Positions 27,370 through 62,729 of a stretch of DNA of 64,000 nt are shown one piece after another (position 1 is the stretch's first letter; each line of letters opens with the position of its first letter). The notes beneath the pieces were generated by a model. It ran no database searches. It was not told where the DNA came from and worked only from the letters and a program-made list of their open reading frames with translations. Both the position numbers and the translations under genes were made by a program. The stretch is taken from contig CAWEGF010000015.1 of the NCBI GenBank assembly GCA_963808535.1, positions 22,526 through 86,525 of the forward strand, written 5' to 3'. This stretch comes from an uncultured Verrucomicrobiae bacterium (GTDB lineage: Bacteria; Verrucomicrobiota; Verrucomicrobiia; Chthoniobacterales; JAFAMB01).

Positions 27370-29173
27370 GTGCCAGCAAAACGCCGCATGCGAGTAAGGC
27401 GAAACATCACCCGCGCGGCATGGCGTCTCGCCAAGTGTTATTGGACATCGGAAGAAAAATGGTCTGCCTGGGCGCTGCTGATCGGAGTCATCGGGCTCAA
27501 CCTCGGGAATGTCTATATCAGCGTGCGGATCAATGAATGGAATCGCTCCTTCTACAACGCGCTCCAGGCTTTCGACCGGGGAGAGTTATTCCGGCAACTG
27601 GGCCTTTTCTGCATTCTGGTCTTTTTCGCGATTTCCATGTCGGTCTATGGACTGTACCTCAGTCAGATGCTGCAGATCCGCTGGCGGCGCTGGTTGACCA
27701 GCAGGTACCTGGATGCCTGGTTGGCCGAACAGGCTTACTATCAATTGGAGTTGGGCGGCCGGACCGATAACCCCGACCAGCGAATCGCCGAGGATCTCCA
27801 CCAATTCACTACCTTTGTGTTAAGTCTCTCCATTGGGTTGATCAGCTCGGTGGTCTCCTTGATTTCGTTTCTGGTGATTCTCTGGGGACTTATCTGGCCC
27901 GGCCGATATCGCCCTGGGTCAATGGGGGACCCTGCATATCCCGGCCTATCTGGTCTGGGCCGCCTTGCTCTATGCCGGCATCGGTACCTGGCTAACGATT
28001 ATCATTGGTCGTCCGCTGGTCCCCTTAAATTATGCTCGTCAGCGTTTTGAAGCCGATTTCCGCTTCAGCTTGGTGCGCTTTAGAGAAAACGCCGAGAGTG
28101 TCGCCCTCTACGGAGGCGAACCGGTCGAGCTCAAGCTTTTCAAGGAACGTTTTGGCAGCGTATTTGAGAATTTCTGTCAGATCATGAAGCGCCAAAAACG
28201 CCTGACCTGGTTCACCTTAGGCTATGCCCAAGTGGCGGTGATCTTTCCGGTGGTGATGATTTCGCCGCGTTACTTTCTCAAGCAGATCGGCCTGGGCGGC
28301 CTGATGCAAGCGGTGAATGCCTTCTCCTTTGTCCAGAACGCCCTTTCCTTTATCATCAATGCCTACGCTGATATTGCCGCCTGGCAGGCGGTGACCGAAC
28401 GGTTAGGTGGTTTCGAGGAGCGGTTGCAGGCCCTCCACCACGCCAAACGAACTGCCGGACAGATAGTGATTCGCCGTGGAGGAATGGGCGTAGCACTTAA
28501 AGAACTCGATGTTGATTTGCCCGATGGCACCCCGCTCTTGCGCGGAGTGAATTTTGCTCCGGCCCGAGGCGGAGCGGTGCTCATCGCCGGGGTGAGCGGC
28601 GCGGGCAAGAGCACCTTGCTGCGGGCCATTGCCGGCATCTGGCCTTACGGCCACGGTGAAATCAGACTAGGTAAAGGACCGATGCTCTTTGTGCCGCAGC
28701 GGCCTTATCTACCGCTAGGCACTTTAGCCAGCGCGCTGCGTTATCCGCGCAGTGAAAAACATAGCTTTCCTATTCTCCGGTTGGCGATCGCGCTGGAGGA
28801 GGTCGGCCTAGGCACCCTGGCCGCCGAACTCGAGGATGCCCAGAACTGGTCTCAGCGCCTCTCGCTGGGCGAACAGCAACGACTGGCTTTTGCCCGGATC
28901 CTGCTTTTAGAACCGGCCCTCTTATTTCTGGATGAAGCTACTTCAGCTCTGGACGAGGTTTCTGAGGCTAAACTCTACGGCCTGTTGCGCGCTGCTCCCT
29001 GGCGGCCCACCATCATCAGCGTTGGTCACCGAAGCACCCTGCGCAGTTTCCACGACCAGGTTTTGGATATCGCCGCTTTCAATCCGTCGTCGGATCGTCC
29101 CGTCTATCTGCCCAGCGTCTTCCTCAATCCGCACCTAAATTTTGTGGCGACTCCCAAGCCCCACGTTTATTGA
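27370..29173 (+). CDS. ABCD/YddA/BacA(Rv1819c)-like fused ABC permease-ATPase; frameshift near 27895
   Basis: LQIRWRRWLT, DNPDQRIAED, EADFRFSL, Walker A GVSGAGKST, LSLGEQQR, LFLDEATSALD. Confidence 0.9.
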
Positions 29174-36546: not shown

Positions 36547-37503
36547 ATGAATATCTCTACCCCAGCCCGCTTCGGGCTTAAAACAGCTTGCGGATTGCTC
36601 CTGGCTATTAGCCTGACCACTCCTCTTCTCGCGCAGAAAAAACTTAGTACCGTGTCGGTAACGGTGGGAGACCTTGGTAACCCATTTTTCGTCCAGATCG
36701 CCCACGGAGCGGAAGCGGCCGCGAAAAAAATTAATTCCGGCGTCAAATTCCAATCTGAATCCAGTAACTACGATGTTAACAATCAGACCAACCAAATGGA
36801 TAACTTTGTCGCCTCCGGGGCCAATCTTATCCTTTTGAACGCCGCGGATAGCAAAGGGATTGCGCCGGCGGTGATGCGCGCGAAGACGTCGGGAGTCACC
36901 GTGGTGGCCGTTGACGTGGGGGCGGAAGGCGGAGTGGACGCTACCGTGACCTCCAATAACAAGCAGGCTGGTCAATTGGACGGCAAATTTGTCGCCGACC
37001 GGTTGAAAGGCAAAGGTAATATCGTGATTGTCAACGGACCGCCCGTCACTGCGGTGACCGACCGGGTGGCCGGATTTCTCGAGGAGATCAAGAAGTCTCC
37101 GGGTATTAAGATCCTCTCGCAGGATCAGAACGCCGGGGGCAGCCGTGACGGCGGGCTCCGGGTGATGACCGATTTGTTAACCGCCTTTCCAAAGATCGAT
37201 GCGGTGTTCGCGATTAACGATCCGACGGCCATCGGCTGCGATCTAGCGGCCAAGCAGGCGCAAAGAAAAGACTTCTTTATCGTCGGCGTCGATGGGGCAC
37301 CCGATGTGGTGCCTTCGCTGAAAGACAAAGATAGCCTGATTGCCGCCAGTGCCGCTCAGGATCCGTATACGATGGCCGGCAAAGCAGTGGAGATTGGTAA
37401 CGACATTATGAATGGTAAGAAGCCGGCGCAGGAACTAACTCTCATCCCGGTAGACCTGATCACCAAAGACAATGTCGACCAGTACAAAGGCTGGACCAAG
37501 TAG
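36547..37503 (+). CDS. Ribose-type (CUT2) ABC substrate-binding protein
   Basis: NPFF, VVAVD, VFAIND, VGVDG, AQDP; first gene of ABC operon. Confidence 0.92.
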   Translation: MNISTPARFGLKTACGLLLAISLTTPLLAQKKLSTVSVTVGDLGNPFFVQIAHGAEAAAKKINSGVKFQSESSNYDVNNQTNQMDNFVASGANLILLNAADSKGIAPAVMRAKTSGVTVVAVDVGAEGGVDATVTSNNKQAGQLDGKFVADRLKGKGNIVIVNGPPVTAVTDRVAGFLEEIKKSPGIKILSQDQNAGGSRDGGLRVMTDLLTAFPKIDAVFAINDPTAIGCDLAAKQAQRKDFFIVGVDGAPDVVPSLKDKDSLIAASAAQDPYTMAGKAVEIGNDIMNGKKPAQELTLIPVDLITKDNVDQYKGWTK

Positions 37504-39032
37504 GAGCGATCGGCCGATCCTGGAAGTACGTCAGATCTGCAAAAGCTTTCCTGGCGTACGCGTTCTTAAGAGCGTCAATCTGAGTATTTGGCCCGGTGAA
37601 GTGCACGCCTTTATGGGCGAGAACGGCGCCGGCAAGAGTACGCTCATGAAGATCCTGGCGGGGGCCTATCGTCCGGACTCGGGTGAAATCGTGCTGGACG
37701 GTAAGACCGTCCAGTTCCGAACTCCGCAAGAGGCACGACTGGCGGGGATTGGGATCATCTACCAGGAATTGACGGTGGCGCCGAACTTGACGGTAAGCGG
37801 CAACGTCTTTCTGGGCGCCGAGCTTAAACGCCTGGGGTTCATCAAAGACACCGCTGAGATGGATCGGAAAACCCAGCAGGTGTTAGATCGGCTCGGGAGC
37901 CAGGTTTAAAGCCACTGAGCGGGCGGCACACCTAGCGGTGGCCGAGCAACAGCAGGTGGAGATCGCCCGCGCTCTATTCTATAAAAGCCGGGTCCTGGTG
38001 ATGGATGAACCAACGGCGGCTCTTTCCGATCGGGAAACTGAGCATCTGTTCGCCGTGGTCCGTCAACTTCGTTCGGAAGGAATGGCCATTATCTACATCA
38101 GCCATCGCATGGCCGAGGTTTATGAACTGGCCGACCGGCTCTCGGTTTTGCGTGACGGCGAATACGTCGGCGAACTGAAGCGGGGAGAGTTCTCCGCCGA
38201 CAAAGTCATTGAGATGATGGTCGGACGGCGACTGGAAGATTTCTACGAACACAAAAAACATTCGGCGGGCCGCCTGGTTCTGGAAGTCAAAAGCATGTCC
38301 GATGACCACGGCCGGGTAAAGAATGCCAGTTTCCAACTCCGGCAGGGCGAAGTCTTGGGATTGGCAGGATTAGTCGGAGCGGGCAGAACCGAGCTCGCCC
38401 GGTTGATCTTCGGGGCTGACAAACGCCGGTCAGGCGAGGTTTACCTGGATGGAAAAAAACTTCAGATCAACCAGCCCAAAGATGCCATCCGCGCCGGGAT
38501 TGGCTACGTCCCGGAAGATCGCAAGCTCCAGGGCGTTTTTCTCCAGATGTCTTCCGGAGAAAACATCACGATGAACATTTTAGGGCGATGTGCGACCGGC
38601 GGCGTCCTCGACTTCAAAAAGTTGACGGATCGGGCAGATGCGGAAGTGAAGGCGATGCGAGTCCGGACCGCTTCGCTGAAGCAGCGAGCCGGTGGACTTT
38701 CCGGCGGTAACCAGCAGAAGCTTCTCTTGGCTCGTTGGCTCGAAATAAACCCGCGGGTCCTGATTCTGGACGAACCCACCCGCGGAGTCGATGTCGGAGC
38801 CAAAGCCGAGATTTATGCGTTGATCCAGCAATTACTCGAGAAAGGGATGGCCGTTCTTTTCATTTCCAGTGAATTGGCGGAAATCGTGGGCGTTTGCGAC
38901 CGCGTCTTAGTCATGAGGGAGGGAGAAATCACCGGCGAAGTGGGCGGCGAGACCGGTGTCGAAATCACTCAACAGAACATTATGAAGTTTGCCACCGACG
39001 TCATCCGGAGTGCATCACCCAATGGCCACTGA
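37472..39032 (+). CDS. RbsA-like tandem sugar ABC ATPase; frameshift near 37905
   Basis: [34 protein letters not shown]. Confidence 0.92.
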
Positions 39033-54840: not shown

Positions 54841-54914
54841 ACGCTGCTCTGAAGGGCGCTGTCCCAGATTCGAACGTCCTAACAAACCGGCCTAAACCAT
54901 CGCCCCCCTCCCAC

Positions 54915-56217
54915 CTACTTCAATGGCGCATCCTTGCTCCCCTTGAGCGCCGCTGGGAGAAAGGGGACTAGCAATAACACGATCGCCGTCGTCCCGGCGT
55001 TCAGCAAAACAAGATTGCTGAATGCCCATTTGTGATCTACCAAGTAGGAACCCACCACATCAGCACCAAAAAGGGCCACGTTCCGGAAGGCGAGGATCAG
55101 GGAATACCCGAGGCCTTCACAACCTTTAGGAGTCGCCCGAGCCGCCAGATCGACCAAAGCGACTTCCGCCAGCCCACCGAAGAGCCCAGTTTGGGATTCG
55201 ATGAACATCGCGCGGTTCCAACTGGAATAGAAAAGATAAAAGAGGGTTCCGCTCGCCGACAATGTTATAGCGATCACCAACAGGGTGCGGATCGAGAAGC
55301 GTTTAATTAATTGGCTGTAGATAATCGCCGCCAGGATGGCAAATCCGCCGTTGAAAACACCGAGATTTCCTATCGCCTGGCTTAGAGAAATGTAGTTCGT
55401 CAGTCTGCTTGTAAAAGAGTGGGGTCACCAATCCGGGTGAGAAATGATACAGGGCGATAAACAGCAGCACCGTCCAAAGCGCTTTAGACCGCAGAATAGT
55501 TTTGATCTGCAAACCCGCGTTTCGGAAAACCGTGGCGCTTTGCTGTGGAGCGACTCGCTGCTCTTTCAGGTAGATGAAGGCGATCGGGAAGATCGCCAGC
55601 GCCAAAACGGCGTTCACGCCAGTCGCCCACATGAATCCGGCGGTTGACAGCAATCCCCCGAGAGGTCCTCGAATCAAGGCGCAAAAATTGAAGACCAACA
55701 TTCGCAAAGCGCTCAAGCGACCAGTGGCGGCCATGCGCTGCCCGGCCTCGACGAGAAAAGCGCCGATCACTGTCGAGCCCATGACCATGAAAAGTTCCAC
55801 CATCATCACCCCGCAAAGTAACGGTCCGTACTGGTGCGGAAGGAAATTCATGCCGAGCCAACTCAAAGCCGTCAGCACCGAACTGCAGAGGAGATAATGT
55901 CGCCGCCGCGTCCCAAACAGTGGAAAGGCGTCCGTGAGAATACCGGCCAAAGGCTTCAAGTACCAAGCCATGCCGGCCCAAAAAAAGAACGCCGCCATCT
56001 GCTCACGAGTGACGTGCACATCGTTCTTCAGCAGGAACTGCAAAGGCAATCTGCCCAGAGCTGACGTCTGGGGCATGGTCGTCGCAAAAATGCCGACAAT
56101 GATGATCAGCGCCAACGGAAGGAGACCTCTATTCCCGACCTCTATGCGACTGCCCGTCGAGATCTCAGTTTCTGCCCATAAGGGCTTACCTGTATCTGGA
56201 GAACCAACAGAATCCAA
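54915..56217 (-). CDS. BT1 (folate/biopterin)-like MFS transporter; frameshift near 55380
   Basis: WYLKPLAGILTDAFPLFGTRRRHYL; LAARATPKGCEG in the C-part. Confidence 0.8.
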
Positions 56218-56229
56218 GAAATGGATTGT

Positions 56230-57648
56230 TCAAGGAAACCGGAGTTGACCCTGATCGGCTGTCGAATGCACTTCGCCGGACCCGGGAGGCGGAAACCCTT
56301 GCGCCGCGTCGTCGATCACCAGGATCCAGTCAAGGTCCTCTCCCTTGAAGGGTGGAGTGACCTCGATCAAGCTGGAGCGCGGGAAAAGTCCCAGATTAAC
56401 GTGACCTCCATCGCGCGGGTTGAACCACCAAAATTGGAACGATTTCCCGGAGAGCGACTGCGGGTTCAGCACGTAAGATCTCGAAGTCGCGCTGTAGATC
56501 ATCCCGTAAGCACCATCCATGCTTCTGGTGGCGTTCATGAATTTGGTTCCTGCGCCCGGAATCCCATTCGGAACGTTCGCAGGAACAATTAGTGAATCGT
56601 CGGGCATCCGAGTCAAGAAGGGGCGACTCTCCAGCAGAGCCCGGGCGTGCCGGATTTGCCAGGCCCCTGGGCTATCGATCGCTTCACGCCAATAGTTGAG
56701 CGGCTTGTTAACTCCCTCGCCGCGGGATGGGGAATGCATCTGCCAAACGCTATGATGCCCGTAGGTGTGACCAAACGCGCCGCTGAAAAGATCCCAGTAC
56801 AAAAACCGACGACAATCGATCGCGCTCGAATACCCGTATTTTGCGGCCTCAAATCCGATCGGATGGTCTTCGTAGATGGGTTCACCATCAATGACCGGTT
56901 TTACTGGAACCCGTGCGTAATCGCTGGCGATCCTCGCCCAGGTCGGTGTCCCATTGAAATGGCCGTCCTGTCGCATATTGAAGTCCAATAGCGGATCGTC
57001 ATTCGGGAAGACGGTGGCTGAAGTCGATATATGCTCGTCGCCACCGCGCGGGTGAAAGGTCATCAGGTGCCGGCCTTGGTCCCCAGCCCGCAAGCCTTCA
57101 CCCAGAGACCGCCAAATCTCGAGTTTTTCCACGTCGTCCACAACCCGATCCCCTCCGAGTATCCAAATGACGTCGGCGTCCCGATACCGCTCGCCCAAAT
57201 ATTCTCCGTAAATTCGAGCGTTCCGGCGATCGAAGATTGATGGGCCGTCGCCGTTGGTCTGCCCGACTTTATCACCCCAGGTTGGTAACATGCCGACGCG
57301 TCAATCCGAGCCGATTGGCCAGGCGGACGATCCAATCCACATGGCGAAAATAAGCCTCGTTCGGAGTTGCCGGATCTTCGTTTACCAGTGGCAAATCACC
57401 GTAAGCATTCGGTTCCCGAATCCCCTGAAATTCAGCCAACACCACGGCCTGAATGACGGTAAACCCTGCTCGACCCGTTTTTGTAAATAGTGCTCTGCCT
57501 CTTCCCGACTTGCCCGGTGGAAGATTTCCCAAGCCGTATCGCCGAACCAATAAAAAGGGGCACCGTTCGATCTGACCAGAAAGCGTCGATTTTCGCTAAC
57601 TCGGAGTTGATCCTGATTTTGAGAGAGGGGCGTTGATGATGAGTTCAC
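56230..57648 (-). CDS. DUF4038 / GH140 (apiosidase-like) glycoside hydrolase; two frameshifts near the 5' end
   Basis: [64 protein letters not shown]. Confidence 0.85.
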
Positions 57649-59159: not shown

Positions 59160-59606
59160 ATGACCAATCAAACCCTCTGTAGCGACTACGTGGAGACATC
59201 CGGGATCAACTTTTTCGCCCGCATGTTGGACAAAATCCGCCTGAACGCCCAAGGCCTCTTGCCGGATGGTTATCATTTGGGATTTTCGGATCCCACGAGT
59301 TTCGATGCCCGCTTTTGCCGGTTCTGGGAAGTGGACTACGATCAACTGGCCGCCAGGACGCTCGAGGGAGGCTCGAACGAGGAACTGCTGGCATGGTGCT
59401 TCCAGGGCAGAAAGCGTCCGAACGAGGATCAAATCCTGGTTTGGAATTCGTTCATTATTAAGCGGGGTTGGCGGGATAGCGGCGCTCCCGGCTTGGTGGT
59501 CGAAAAGAAGCTCAGCGGATTTGCCGACCGCGACGACATTCAGACTTATGTCGACTTGCATGACGCCGACGAAGGTCGAACCCCTAAATATACCTCCGGG
59601 CTCTAA
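59160..59606 (+). CDS. DUF5069-like protein
   Basis: FARMLDKIRL..GLLP..Y, EELLAW, DADEGR. Confidence 0.75.
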   Translation: MTNQTLCSDYVETSGINFFARMLDKIRLNAQGLLPDGYHLGFSDPTSFDARFCRFWEVDYDQLAARTLEGGSNEELLAWCFQGRKRPNEDQILVWNSFIIKRGWRDSGAPGLVVEKKLSGFADRDDIQTYVDLHDADEGRTPKYTSGL

Positions 59607-59624
59607 GGCAACGATTCGAGTAAG

Positions 59625-60092
59625 CTAAGCCGGCTTCGGCATTTCAAAAGCGGGCAACGGCTCCCCGGTCTCGAGCAAAGTCTTAAGACCGCTCAGGATC
59701 AAGGGCCAACCTTGCCGCCCTCCTTCGAGATATTTTGGATCGAGCGATTCATCATGATATTCGCTCACCGTGAGCCGAACAATATCGCCTAACGGTTCAA
59801 TCCGAAAGGTCACCACCGCCTCGGGCAATCGACGAAACTCCTCCATCCACTCGACATGCCAGGTCACGGAAAGAAATCGCGGCGGATCGCAGGCCAGCAC
59901 CTTTCCCTGGGTGTCGATTCGCCCATCTTCCATCACCAGCCGGAATAGACCTCCCACCCTCTGTTCCAGCTCCACCGCCCGGCCAAAAAAATATTGGCGG
60001 GTAAACGTCGAGGCAGTCAGCCCTTCCCAAACGCGCTCGCCGCTGGCGACAATGTAGGTGACCAGAACGGTGCTTGGCTCGGCTCGAATCAT
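59625..60092 (-). CDS. SRPBCC/AHSA1-like domain protein
   Basis: ERVWEGLT..FTRQYFFG, DPPRFLSVTW, GWPLILSGLKTLLETG. Confidence 0.88.
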   Translation of the reverse strand: MIRAEPSTVLVTYIVASGERVWEGLTASTFTRQYFFGRAVELEQRVGGLFRLVMEDGRIDTQGKVLACDPPRFLSVTWHVEWMEEFRRLPEAVVTFRIEPLGDIVRLTVSEYHDESLDPKYLEGGRQGWPLILSGLKTLLETGEPLPAFEMPKPA

Positions 60093-60183
60093 AGATCGTT
60101 ACTTTCCGACCCGGAAATGGTCGACGGAATTGGATGTTTAGAACGCTGATCTCTCTGTCTCGGTTTCTCCCGAGTTAGGTTGA

Positions 60184-61369
60184 TTATCTCCCCATGGCCT
60201 GCGCCTCAACTCCATGCCCGCTCAGGCTCGCCTCAAGATCGTTTAGGACGATATCCAAAGGTAGTTTGACGCTGTACCGGCAAAACATTGTTTCGGCTGT
60301 CGCCAGGCTCCCATTCTCATAATACTTATTCGCTGGAGCTCCGCCCCCGCAATACCCGTAGTATGCGCAAGAGTCTTGGCAGAGTTTTATTCCGGTCTGC
60401 AAATCCGCAAAAACTGAGCGAAATTTCGGGCTCTCTACCGCATCCACAAAGTCGTCGGTAAGAATATTGCCGAAACTGAAAGTTCCATAAGGAGACAAGT
60501 TCATCCCCAGGAGTTCAGGAGAATAGGTAGAATAGTTTCCGTCGCAGTCAACGTTCAGAATGCCAAAAGGACGCACCTGTTCGTTGAAGTGCGGAAAGTC
60601 AAAGTGGCGCAAAGATTTCCGGCTCTGAATTTTTCCCAGAGCCGCGTCGAATTCTCGAATCCTCATCCGGCCTCCATCGGATTTTTGCAGTCGAAAAATC
60701 GTCATCATAAAGGCTTCGACGCTTTCGGCCATTTGGCTGGAGGAGGTCAGCGACGACTTTGCGTTTTCGCCTTCAATCTCCTCGATGTTAAAACCGAGCT
60801 GAGAAACTTCGAGGTCGTAGAAGAAGTGATAAATATCCTCCGCGCGCCCGAGGGCCTGCTGGGTGATCACGCTAATCACGTGGAACGGGATATCATGAGT
60901 CTTCAACAGGCGGAGTCCCTCCATCGCCGCCTGGTGCGAACCGCGGCCCGATCGGGTTTTTCGGTGTGCGTCGTGAATATCGGCCGGGCCGTCGATGCTC
61001 AATCCGATCGACACCTCTTGATCTCGAAGAAACTTGCACCATCGCTCATTTATCAAGGTCCCGTTGGACTGCATACAATGGCGAACGACCGCTCCGGCGG
61101 GCGCTTTCCGCCGGATCTCGGTCAAACGCCATCTCGTAATAAGAGATCGGCACCGCCAATGGCTCTCCGGCATGCCAGATCACCGTTAGCGGACCCGGAA
61201 TCAACTCGGCCGCGAAGATTTTCTCAATCGTCGCGCCTACTATCTCTAAAGGCATCCGTTTCTTGGAAGCGCGATTCGGGAGATAGCAATAGTCACAGTT
61301 AATGTTACAAAACGGTGATGGCTGAAGAACCAGCAAGCTGATCCACGGACGGCGCGGATCATCATCCAT
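60184..61369 (-). CDS. grrM: Cyclophane-forming radical SAM/SPASM peptide maturase (GrrM/OscB type); single extra base at 61120-61121
   Basis: LQPSPFCNINCDYCYLP, WHAGEPL, QSNGTL, SIDGP, STYSPELLG, C..SCAYYGYCGGGAPANKYYENG..ETMFC; deleting one G restores a 394-aa ORF (..EMAFDEIRR..). Confidence 0.9.
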
Positions 61370-61474
61370 TATCCAACGGTCGATCCAAAAGAGGATCAGT
61401 CTGGTTCATCCAGGATTATCTGTGGCGTTAAATTGGTCCGGAGACTAGCACCGCCTAGCCAAAGAGGAAGGAGG

Positions 61475-61879
61475 CTAGAAGTTGCCCCAGTTGTGCCAAT
61501 TATGCCAGTTGTGCCAATTGTGCCAGCCACCGTTACCCCAACCACCGTTGCCCCAGCCGGGATGCCAGTTGTGCCAACCATACCCGGGATGCCAATTGTG
61601 CCAATTTCCCCACCACATTGGCTGGACGCTATCCGGCGCAGTGTTGCCTGGGCTGACTTCTGTTCCTGGACCTTGACCGAGTTGCTCCTGAATCTTTTGA
61701 ACTCGAATCTCCAGTTGTTCGGCTCCTTCCGCTTTGGCAGAAGCTGAATTGGTCGCGGCAGCATCCCCGACGGCCGCCGAGCCAAGCATCAGCCCGCTCG
61801 TCAGTGCAAAGAGAGCACCAAGCGATTTGGCGAGCGAGCGTTCATTGGGTCGCTTTGAGTTATCTGATCCTGAGGTCAT
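61475..61879 (-). CDS. grrA: GrrA/OscA-type Trp/Gly/Asn-rich RiPP precursor
   Basis: Hydrophobic N-region, LEIRVQKIQEQL leader helix, core WWGNWHN..WGNGGWGNGG(WHN)4WGNF; directly upstream of the rSAM gene. Confidence 0.88.
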   Translation of the reverse strand: MTSGSDNSKRPNERSLAKSLGALFALTSGLMLGSAAVGDAAATNSASAKAEGAEQLEIRVQKIQEQLGQGPGTEVSPGNTAPDSVQPMWWGNWHNWHPGYGWHNWHPGWGNGGWGNGGWHNWHNWHNWHNWGNF

Positions 61880-61911
61880 AAGAACACTTTCTTTTTTGGG
61901 ATGAGGTAAAA

Positions 61912-62487
61912 TTAGAGATCGTTCGCTGCGTCGCTAGTCAGCTTTTCCCAGTAGGCTTCCACTTGGGAGCCGAGTTGATTATCGCGGATAAATAAGCTCC
62001 CCTCCTCGGTCTTCGGGTTGACGGTGAAGAAAGCTTCAGCCGCTTTTCCGAGCCAGGACTTGTCCAGATCATCTTTGGCGTCAGGTCGTTCGGCTCCCTG
62101 GCCGAAAGCCACCTGCGCCACCCTCAACAAGCCGAGGGTGCTATCTCGATCCTGAGAGTTCAGCGAAATGGCAAAAAACTTGTCTTGGAAAAAGTGATAA
62201 ATGATTGATTCGAGCTTTACCGGTCCAAGTTGGAGGTTTTCGTCCTTCTTGACATACAGTTTTAAATCTCCCTGATCTTTGTCGAGAGTAAGTCCTTGGA
62301 ATTCCGAAAACGGGGTTCCAAATTTTTGACCGCGAAACCCGTTCGTCGTGTCGAGTTTCGTGGAGTGTTCAGCAGGCGGCGCCTGCTTATTCGATTCCTT
62401 CGCTGAAGAATCGTAGGTGCCCACTGCCGCAATCGACGAGGCGCAAAGCGCCAAGCGGGCATAATGCAAGAGTCGGCTTTTGGACAT
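61912..62487 (-). CDS. Exported hypothetical protein
   Basis: Likely ATG at 62487 with signal peptide; ends 32 bp before the precursor ATG. Confidence 0.75.
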   Translation of the reverse strand: MSKSRLLHYARLALCASSIAAVGTYDSSAKESNKQAPPAEHSTKLDTTNGFRGQKFGTPFSEFQGLTLDKDQGDLKLYVKKDENLQLGPVKLESIIYHFFQDKFFAISLNSQDRDSTLGLLRVAQVAFGQGAERPDAKDDLDKSWLGKAAEAFFTVNPKTEEGSLFIRDNQLGSQVEAYWEKLTSDAANDL

Positions 62488-62729
62488 AAATGTTTTAAAA
62501 AAAACGACGGCGCTGAGATAAACTTTCTCTGCTCCAAAAAGCAAGCGTAAAGAGCTCAGCGGGTTGTCGGGCATTCATCAGCCTCCTTCGCGCATGCTGA
62601 AAGCTTTAAGGGTCACTTATGTCGAGGAAAACGATAAATTCTAGGGCGACCCGCGTAGCAAAGAGGGCAGAGAACATTGGCCCAAGGTAAAACCCTGGTG
62701 TTTGGCGCTGCTCATCCTTTGACCCGAGG

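Follow-up and report, generated by a model that had tools for sequence, protein, structure and literature searches.

We identified a three-gene cassette, orf191-grrA-grrM, in a 64,000-nucleotide (nt) stretch of DNA from a soil Chthoniobacterales bacterium; the whole stretch is referred to here as the window, and all positions are coordinates within it. The cassette likely represents a system of the GRRM/triceptide family that forms cyclophanes by OscB-type chemistry, with the breaks in its radical S-adenosylmethionine (SAM) enzyme gene being errors of the assembly. Its precursor belongs to the GrrA/OscA1 family and its enzyme to the GrrM/OscB family, and their match to the family models is not a matter of chance. 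Such a system is already known, chemically characterised and widely distributed, and the only thing out of the ordinary in the one described here is a lineage-specific, secreted-looking partner, the product of orf191. The genome that holds the window (4.16 Mb in 41 contigs) is 83.8% complete.

Layout of the cassette

Positions 59625-62487 hold four genes at the level of open reading frames (ORFs), all on the minus strand, in the order orf191, grrA and grrM, followed downstream by an AHSA1/SRPBCC gene. Lengths of products are given in amino acids (aa).

61912..62487, minus strand: orf191, first gene of the cassette, 191 aa, secreted-looking, of no named family
61475..61879, minus strand: grrA, 134-aa precursor of the GrrA/OscA1 family (TIGR04260)
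60184..61409, minus strand: grrM, radical SAM/SPASM enzyme of the GrrM/OscB family, lying in three frames as assembled, with two single-base insertions
59625..60092, minus strand: AHSA1/SRPBCC gene (Pfam PF08327), outside the cassette

The precursor gene is 65 nt upstream of grrM, and an ORF homologous to the precursor adjoins the enzyme gene in the loci of 10 out of 10 relatives. A first-pass annotation of this DNA had described a 134-aa precursor directly upstream of a radical SAM gene with CNINCDYC and a CGGG signature, and all three features are present in the sequence. The span that it gave, 59625-62487, does enclose the cassette, but it passed over both orf191, which is a member, and the AHSA1/SRPBCC gene, which is not.

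When species-representative genomes were scanned with the enzyme alignment, 492 pattern matches were obtained, of which 273 were confirmed as loci. The best 80 of these 273, by a ranking that favours the query's own kin, are the related loci referred to below. The AHSA1/SRPBCC gene was considered as a possible cassette member and was ruled out, being present in none of the 80. The cassette itself, orf191 included, is conserved in the Chthoniobacterales clade.

The precursor

Against the NCBIfam model TIGR04260 ("GrrA/OscA1 family cyclophane-containing rSAM-modified RiPP", the last term standing for ribosomally synthesised and post-translationally modified peptide), the grrA product scored 40.1 bits over residues 28-128, with a cut-off of 31. 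It is built of an N-terminal segment, a conserved leader segment, a variable linker, a conserved Pro-Met and a repeat core, and its main parts are located as follows.

61751..61879, minus strand: residues 1-43, basic n-region, hydrophobic stretch and small residues (AAVGDAAAT), Sec-signal-like
61679..61720, minus strand: residues 54-67 (EQLEIRVQKIQEQL), conserved leader segment with invariant Arg59
61478..61621, minus strand: residues 87-134, core with 10 Trp-x-Asn motifs, preceded by the conserved Pro-Met

Among the 48 residues of the core are 13 Trp, 11 Gly, 10 Asn and 8 His, and the ten non-overlapping Trp-x-Asn motifs comprise six WHN and four WGN. When 18 precursors from 6 phyla were aligned, Arg59 was invariant, and in the last motifs the Trp and Asn positions were invariant too, the residue between them varying among H, G, R, N and P. 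With a crude pattern, an ORF carrying at least 3 W-x-[ND] motifs was found on the strand of the enzyme in 49 of the 80 related loci. We infer that the leader segment with Arg59 is the element recognised by the enzyme. Residues 16-38 have a mean Kyte-Doolittle hydropathy of 1.2-1.76, and the same N-terminal layout (basic, then hydrophobic, then small residues) is also seen in precursors of other phyla.

The radical SAM enzyme

As assembled, grrM consists of two overlapping ORFs, 61046..61369 and 60184..61173, plus 15 cut-off codons. The family model used was TIGR04261, on which, we presume, the InterPro entry IPR026357 (OscB) is built. The downstream piece scored 347.8 bits against it (cut-off 310) over profile positions 81-362, and the upstream piece a further 89.7 bits over positions 1-70; the intact enzymes of relatives scored 392-451 bits. 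Both members of the pair therefore pass their family models, as the first-pass annotation had expected in naming a GrrA-like precursor and a GrrM/OscB-like maturase. Two cysteine-bearing regions were located.

61286..61309, minus strand: CNINCDYC, the CxxxCxxC motif for the radical SAM [4Fe-4S] cluster, in ORF 61046..61369, conserved in relatives
60280..60381, minus strand: SPASM cysteine region, C265...C269...C275-GGG...C298

The alignment of 11 sequences showed C265, C269, C275 and the GGG that follows to be invariant and C298 to be nearly invariant. The C-terminal signature YCGGGAPANKYYENGSLATAETMFC was found in ORF 60184..61173.

Two frame breaks in grrM

The window as assembled has no intact open reading frame for grrM. 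Frame correction of the radical SAM gene had already been called for in the first-pass annotation, and rightly so, although two breaks have to be corrected and not one.

61119..61121, minus strand: frame break 1, one extra base
61368..61371, minus strand: frame break 2, one extra base, cutting off the first 15 codons (MNQTDPLLDRPLDNG, ATG at 61409)

Most likely the two extra bases are insertion or deletion (indel) errors of the assembly and not signs of decay, because they are absent from relatives and from soil contigs, and because other genes, dnaE included, are split in the same manner. For the comparison with relatives, the orthologues of ten related genomes were aligned as DNA. At break 1 the minus strand of the window reads TTTGACCGAG, against TTTGA-CGA in the 8 relatives inspected (L004-L010 and L012); L011 and L013, the two most distant, were aligned without inspection of the site. 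Upstream of break 2, in the other frame, the stretch ATG(61409)-MNQTDPLLDRPLDNG-stop reads MNQTDPLL..., like the N-termini of the relatives (MNQTDPLSERMLPDDPLHPW...).

Logan contigs set on positions 59600-62600 came from three soil DNA runs of three studies and from one RNA-library run (X17, a soil metatranscriptome). The three runs with cover of break 1 (X1, X2 and X17) all lack the base at 61119, while run X4 has no cover of 61014-61215 and is thus silent on it; at break 2 a single base is left out, at 61368, 61369 or 61371, in 4 of 4 runs. The X17 contigs are without both extra bases, and the soil contigs that lack them are 95-99% alike to the window. Two more consensus indels, at 60103 and 61887 in the flanking intergenic DNA, set the window apart from all three DNA runs.

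Comparison with intact ORFs of the same genus was possible for approximately 16 genes of the window, and 3 more of these show a frame change. Elsewhere in the genome there is a split in dnaE, at profile position 965, and another in a second DnaE-like (DnaE2-like) gene.

37472-39029: sugar ATP-binding cassette (ABC) ATPase, frame change against its same-genus orthologue (92-93% identical)
27388-29086: SbmA/BacA-like ABC transporter, frame change against its same-genus orthologue
54900-56175: major facilitator superfamily (MFS) transporter, frame change against its same-genus orthologue
G000:C25:284155-287212 and G000:C13:47988-50601: split dnaE and DnaE2-like gene

It could instead be that grrM is really decaying, by two true single-base insertions, and that no modified peptide is made in this strain, which we consider unlikely. 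Two separate breaks do fall within one 1.2-kb gene, and GrrM above the cut-off was not found in 10 of the 18 same-genus genomes searched, which makes the cassette dispensable. Moreover, several observations weigh against an assembly error. The rpoB and rpoC genes are unbroken in the assembly, whose indel rate is hence not extreme. The GrrM orthologue of one relative, the same-family genome G023 (L012, at G023:C129:90662-94651), shifts frame immediately behind CGGGA, close to its C-terminus, and matches the profile as two pieces (1-327 and 325-363). The soil contigs, for their part, represent related populations, holding at most 0.47 of the locus words in any run, and leave the intactness of the gene in this strain unproven.

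On the other hand, apart from the two insertions, grrM has open frames free of in-frame stops, its protein shares 81% identity with relatives and has lost none of the invariant residues, and both the precursor and orf191 are intact. Like frame changes affect the other window genes listed above, the split dnaE is essential and cannot be a pseudogene, and the consensus indels at 60103 and 61887 lie in intergenic flanks. The extra bases are thus best read as assembly errors, and the organism probably carries an intact grrM. A programmed frameshift was ruled out, since the relatives and the related contigs are simply without the extra bases.

One further interrupted gene was seen in the window, at 56230-57648 on the minus strand. 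Neither of its pieces belongs to any NCBIfam family that we could find, and the interruption extends from about 57291 to 57382. Its orthologue in a same-genus genome also consists of two ORFs (L104:10063-10611 and L104:10625-11461).

The X17 contigs cover 60838-61526, 61651-61801 and 62122-62356 and so reach into all three genes of the cassette, which gives a weak hint that the cassette is expressed, tempered by the possibility of DNA carry-over in RNA libraries. No attenuator hairpin was detected in the gap between precursor and enzyme (61400-61485), which folds no better than its shuffles (z -0.91), and promoter and terminator scans of the locus gave results near the shuffle expectation.

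Ring chemistry

The system most like the one in the window is OscA/OscB of cyanobacteria (the same as GrrA/GrrM, the GRRM system). Both share the CxxxCxxC and SPASM cysteines and pass both family models, and both have a precursor with a leader and a Gly/Trp/Asn-rich repeat core holding the Trp-x-Asn motifs that OscB is reported to crosslink (PMC11002830). That review, with Nguyen et al. 2020 as the source, describes co-expression of OscB (IPR026357) with its precursor and nuclear magnetic resonance (NMR) evidence for three-residue cyclophanes between residues i and i+2, the links running from Trp C7 to the C-beta of Asn or Asp, or from Phe C4 to the C-beta of Asn (PMC11002830).

By analogy with the cyanobacterial OscB, the ring type in this cassette would be Trp C7 to Asn C-beta. 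What speaks against carrying it over is that the cyanobacterial members are only about 41-44% identical to the window enzyme and belong to a different subclade. The core of the window precursor also differs from that of OscA in being His-rich (WHN).

Perhaps, then, the enzyme is active but makes another link on these His-rich motifs, be it to another indole carbon, as a His-derived cyclophane, or as a C-N or C-O bond. Ring position and partner are indeed described as variable in PMC11002830 and PMC11499958 (C6 in XncB, C7 in OscB, and His C2 links), a considerable distance separates the clade from its cyanobacterial counterpart, and 8 His are present in the 48-residue core. We nevertheless think this improbable, as the invariant positions are Trp at i and Asn at i+2, whereas the middle residue varies, a pattern that fits a Trp-Asn link and not a His link.

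Relation to other SPASM enzymes

AmcB (NF041718), XyeB/XncB, FxsB/MscB, YhhB and ChlB belong to the same enzyme superfamily as grrM and share its general type of reaction. AmcB was the second-best model, yet it stayed under its cut-off (223.6 bits against 425), and so did YhhB (110.7 against 445), FxsB (83.1 against 370) and XyeB (53.6 against 450). By sequence, the nearest solved structures are those of an anaerobic sulfatase-maturing enzyme (anSME; 4k36/4k37, E 2e-23), and the nearest solved triceptide enzyme is ChlB (9gm3, E 1e-16).

A quick tree was computed by maximum likelihood from 49 rows, which comprised 46 of the 80 loci, the window enzyme and 2 outgroups; the other 34 loci were left out for having no single ORF with both CxxxCxxC and CGGG. 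The window enzyme fell inside a starred nine-row clade of Chthoniobacterales metagenome-assembled genomes (MAGs), nested in a starred 47-row family clade, and the anSME-like outgroup and the second SPASM enzyme of the genome fell outside. The five cyanobacterial rows formed a starred clade elsewhere in the family. The first-pass annotation had named a grouping of the enzyme with the anaerobic sulfatase maturases as a finding that would refute its reading, and the enzyme does not group with them.

That the radical SAM protein is an anSME or another non-RiPP SPASM enzyme beside an unrelated small ORF, for which one might cite its closest solved structure, can be dismissed almost entirely in view of its scores (TIGR03942, 137.4 bits against a cut-off of 349, where TIGR04261 is passed), the Trp-x-Asn precursor adjoining it in 10 of 10 relatives, and the outgroup position of the anSME-like sequence.

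A second repeat-peptide locus was observed in the same genome (L003, at G000:C34:61902-65921). Its precursor is a 109-aa ORF (L003:264-593, plus strand) that has Gly-rich repeats of W-[VI]-N and an N-terminus of twin-arginine-like character, and a SPASM radical SAM enzyme of 388 aa (L003:1468-2634, plus strand) is encoded about 0.9 kb further downstream. This enzyme passes no NCBIfam cut-off, its best models being anSME (144 bits against 349) and GrrM (81 bits against 310), and of the 40 genomes of relatives that were searched, 14 hold homologues of it, at 66-83 bits.

The upstream partner orf191

The longest ORF of orf191 extends to 62574; its homologues begin at the Met at 62487. Residues 10-25 form a hydrophobic stretch, and the N-termini of the homologues are signal-peptide-like. 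Searches of orf191 and four homologues against Pfam and NCBIfam gave nothing credible up to E 10. The homologues fall into 74 clusters, all "hypothetical" or unnamed, and the ESM Atlas likewise returned unnamed clusters only.

In 15 of the 80 related loci, all of them from the Chthoniobacterales/Terrimicrobiaceae clade, the gene immediately precedes that of the precursor. We also searched 41 genomes, namely the window's own and 40 relatives. The enzyme was above the family cut-off in 11 of them (10 relatives plus the window's genome), and orf191 was present in 9, each copy adjoining the enzyme gene. Put differently, orf191 occurs in 9 of 11 GrrM-positive and 0 of 30 GrrM-negative genomes, which, as the genomes are kin, is an association rather than a statistical test. 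Within the genomes searched, orf191 occurs only beside the GrrM enzyme.

An AlphaFold2 model made with 21 sequences had a predicted local distance difference test score (pLDDT) of 82 and a predicted template-modelling score (pTM) of 0.73, with residues 1-39 disordered. A Foldseek search of the model against PDB gave no match at E <= 0.001 (best E 0.023), and when a profile built from the orf191 alignment was run on PDB sequences, nothing was found either (best E 0.37). The best structural alignment by VIA-align was to the double-wing domain of E. coli YdcD (8wj5_A; Z 9.3, root-mean-square deviation (rmsd) 3.2, 110 residues), ahead of the Rhs immunity protein RhsI1 (6xtd_B; Z 7.8, rmsd 4.3, 120 residues) and a DUF4309 protein (4ygt; Z 6.9). 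Z values near 8 are common for unrelated models with this program, and the orf191 matches are barely above that level. The likeness to YdcD and RhsI1 is one of fold in a predicted model, without sequence similarity (identity 16% and 9%, respectively). The predicted double-wing-like alpha/beta fold is therefore a lead on the fold of orf191, not on its function. When orf191 (residues 40-190) was modelled in complex with the precursor (residues 44-134), the score was 0.01 against a mark of 0.32, from which nothing is inferred either way.

Cyanobacterial cassettes have a third gene, GrrP (TIGR04262, periplasmic-binding-like), whereas the window has none at the locus and carries instead, upstream, the unrelated secreted-looking 191-aa protein. 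GrrP had no match on the contig of the window and 6 matches, all under the cut-off, on the other contigs of the genome.

Host and distribution of the family

Unlike the cyanobacterial OscA/OscB systems, the cassette comes from a soil Chthoniobacterales bacterium. The first-pass annotation took the host for a verrucomicrobial one, and the nearest relatives, in the locus scan as well as in the tree, are indeed Chthoniobacterales or Verrucomicrobiae MAGs. The closest of the best 80 loci come from MAGs titled uncultured Verrucomicrobiae or Chthoniobacterales (74-85% identity), and Terrimicrobiaceae come next (61%). By phylum, the best 80 loci are distributed as follows.

Verrucomicrobiota: 52
Acidobacteriota: 13
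Cyanobacteriota: 5
Planctomycetota: 2
Bacteroidota: 2
Myxococcota: 2
Binatota: 1
Pseudomonadota: 1
Unplaced: 2

A verrucomicrobial host is thus normal for the GrrA/GrrM family. The suggestion, also made in the first pass, that the locus is a new and unusual non-cyanobacterial branch has to be given up, as verrucomicrobial loci stand at 52 against 5 cyanobacterial ones among these best 80, and the chemistry of the family is characterised. A literature search, which had the primary triceptide papers and their supplements outside its scope, found no paper linking "triceptide" with "Verrucomicrobi".

Other architectures were observed around related enzymes. Many Verrucomicrobiales loci (L043-L075; e.g. 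L047:4008-4256 and L044:3977-4393) have a short ORF after, not before, the GrrM-like enzyme; it starts with MAILRS.DGKFY and ends in repeats of the C-W-R-N-C-W type, and it is followed in turn by a protein of about 400 aa whose sequence begins with ...PYGVGLAYR, so that a related enzyme stands in a different cassette. Six loci from Binatota, Planctomycetota and Myxococcota (L053, L055, L059, L077, L085 and L088) encode, immediately downstream of the enzyme and at about 3.9-4.8 kb, a conserved protein of some 270-285 aa, and this is a companion other than orf191. Clustering of the neighbouring ORFs of the 80 loci showed other companions in other clades; it was confounded by overlapping shadow frames, and no counts were taken from it.

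Proposed mechanism and implications

If the chemistry of OscB applies, GrrM would bind the leader and use the [4Fe-4S] cluster of its CxxxCxxC motif for the cleavage of SAM. The 5'-deoxyadenosyl radical would then take the C-beta hydrogen of the Asn at i+2, and the resulting carbon radical would attack the indole C7 of the Trp at i, giving one three-residue cyclophane and a loss of 2 Da per motif. For the whole core this would mean as many as 10 rings, with a mass loss of about 20 Da. The modified peptide might then be exported by Sec through its N-terminal signal-like segment, perhaps with trimming before the conserved Pro-Met-Trp, and outside the cytoplasm it would meet the secreted orf191 protein.

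The cleavage of all characterised triceptides is placed ahead of the first ring-forming motif, often at Pro (PMC12912966), and the conserved Pro-Met-Trp of the precursor fits such a cleavage. Export would follow from the resemblance of the precursor N-terminus to a Sec signal peptide, and it tells against this step that the resemblance consists of sequence features. No protease or transporter gene recurs beside the cassette in this clade, the wider neighbourhood being unannotated.

As a speculative reading, to which we give little weight, the product is not a small diffusible peptide but a Sec-exported His/Trp-rich chain with up to ten rings that has a role in the envelope together with orf191. 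The two may form a toxin/immunity-like pair, as the predicted fold of orf191 resembles immunity proteins, or the chain may be a metal-binding envelope peptide with orf191 as its dedicated binding partner.

For the handling of such loci, frame breaks in this indel-prone assembly are not to be taken as biology without read support. For triceptide mining, the precursors of this and other clades, judged by their sequences, look exported. GrrA/GrrM cassettes are common outside cyanobacteria, with many in verrucomicrobial and acidobacterial soil bacteria, and for that reason the finding of one in such a host is not the sign of a new system. What distinguishes the Chthoniobacterales clade is that it has its own secreted-looking partner, orf191, beside GrrM.

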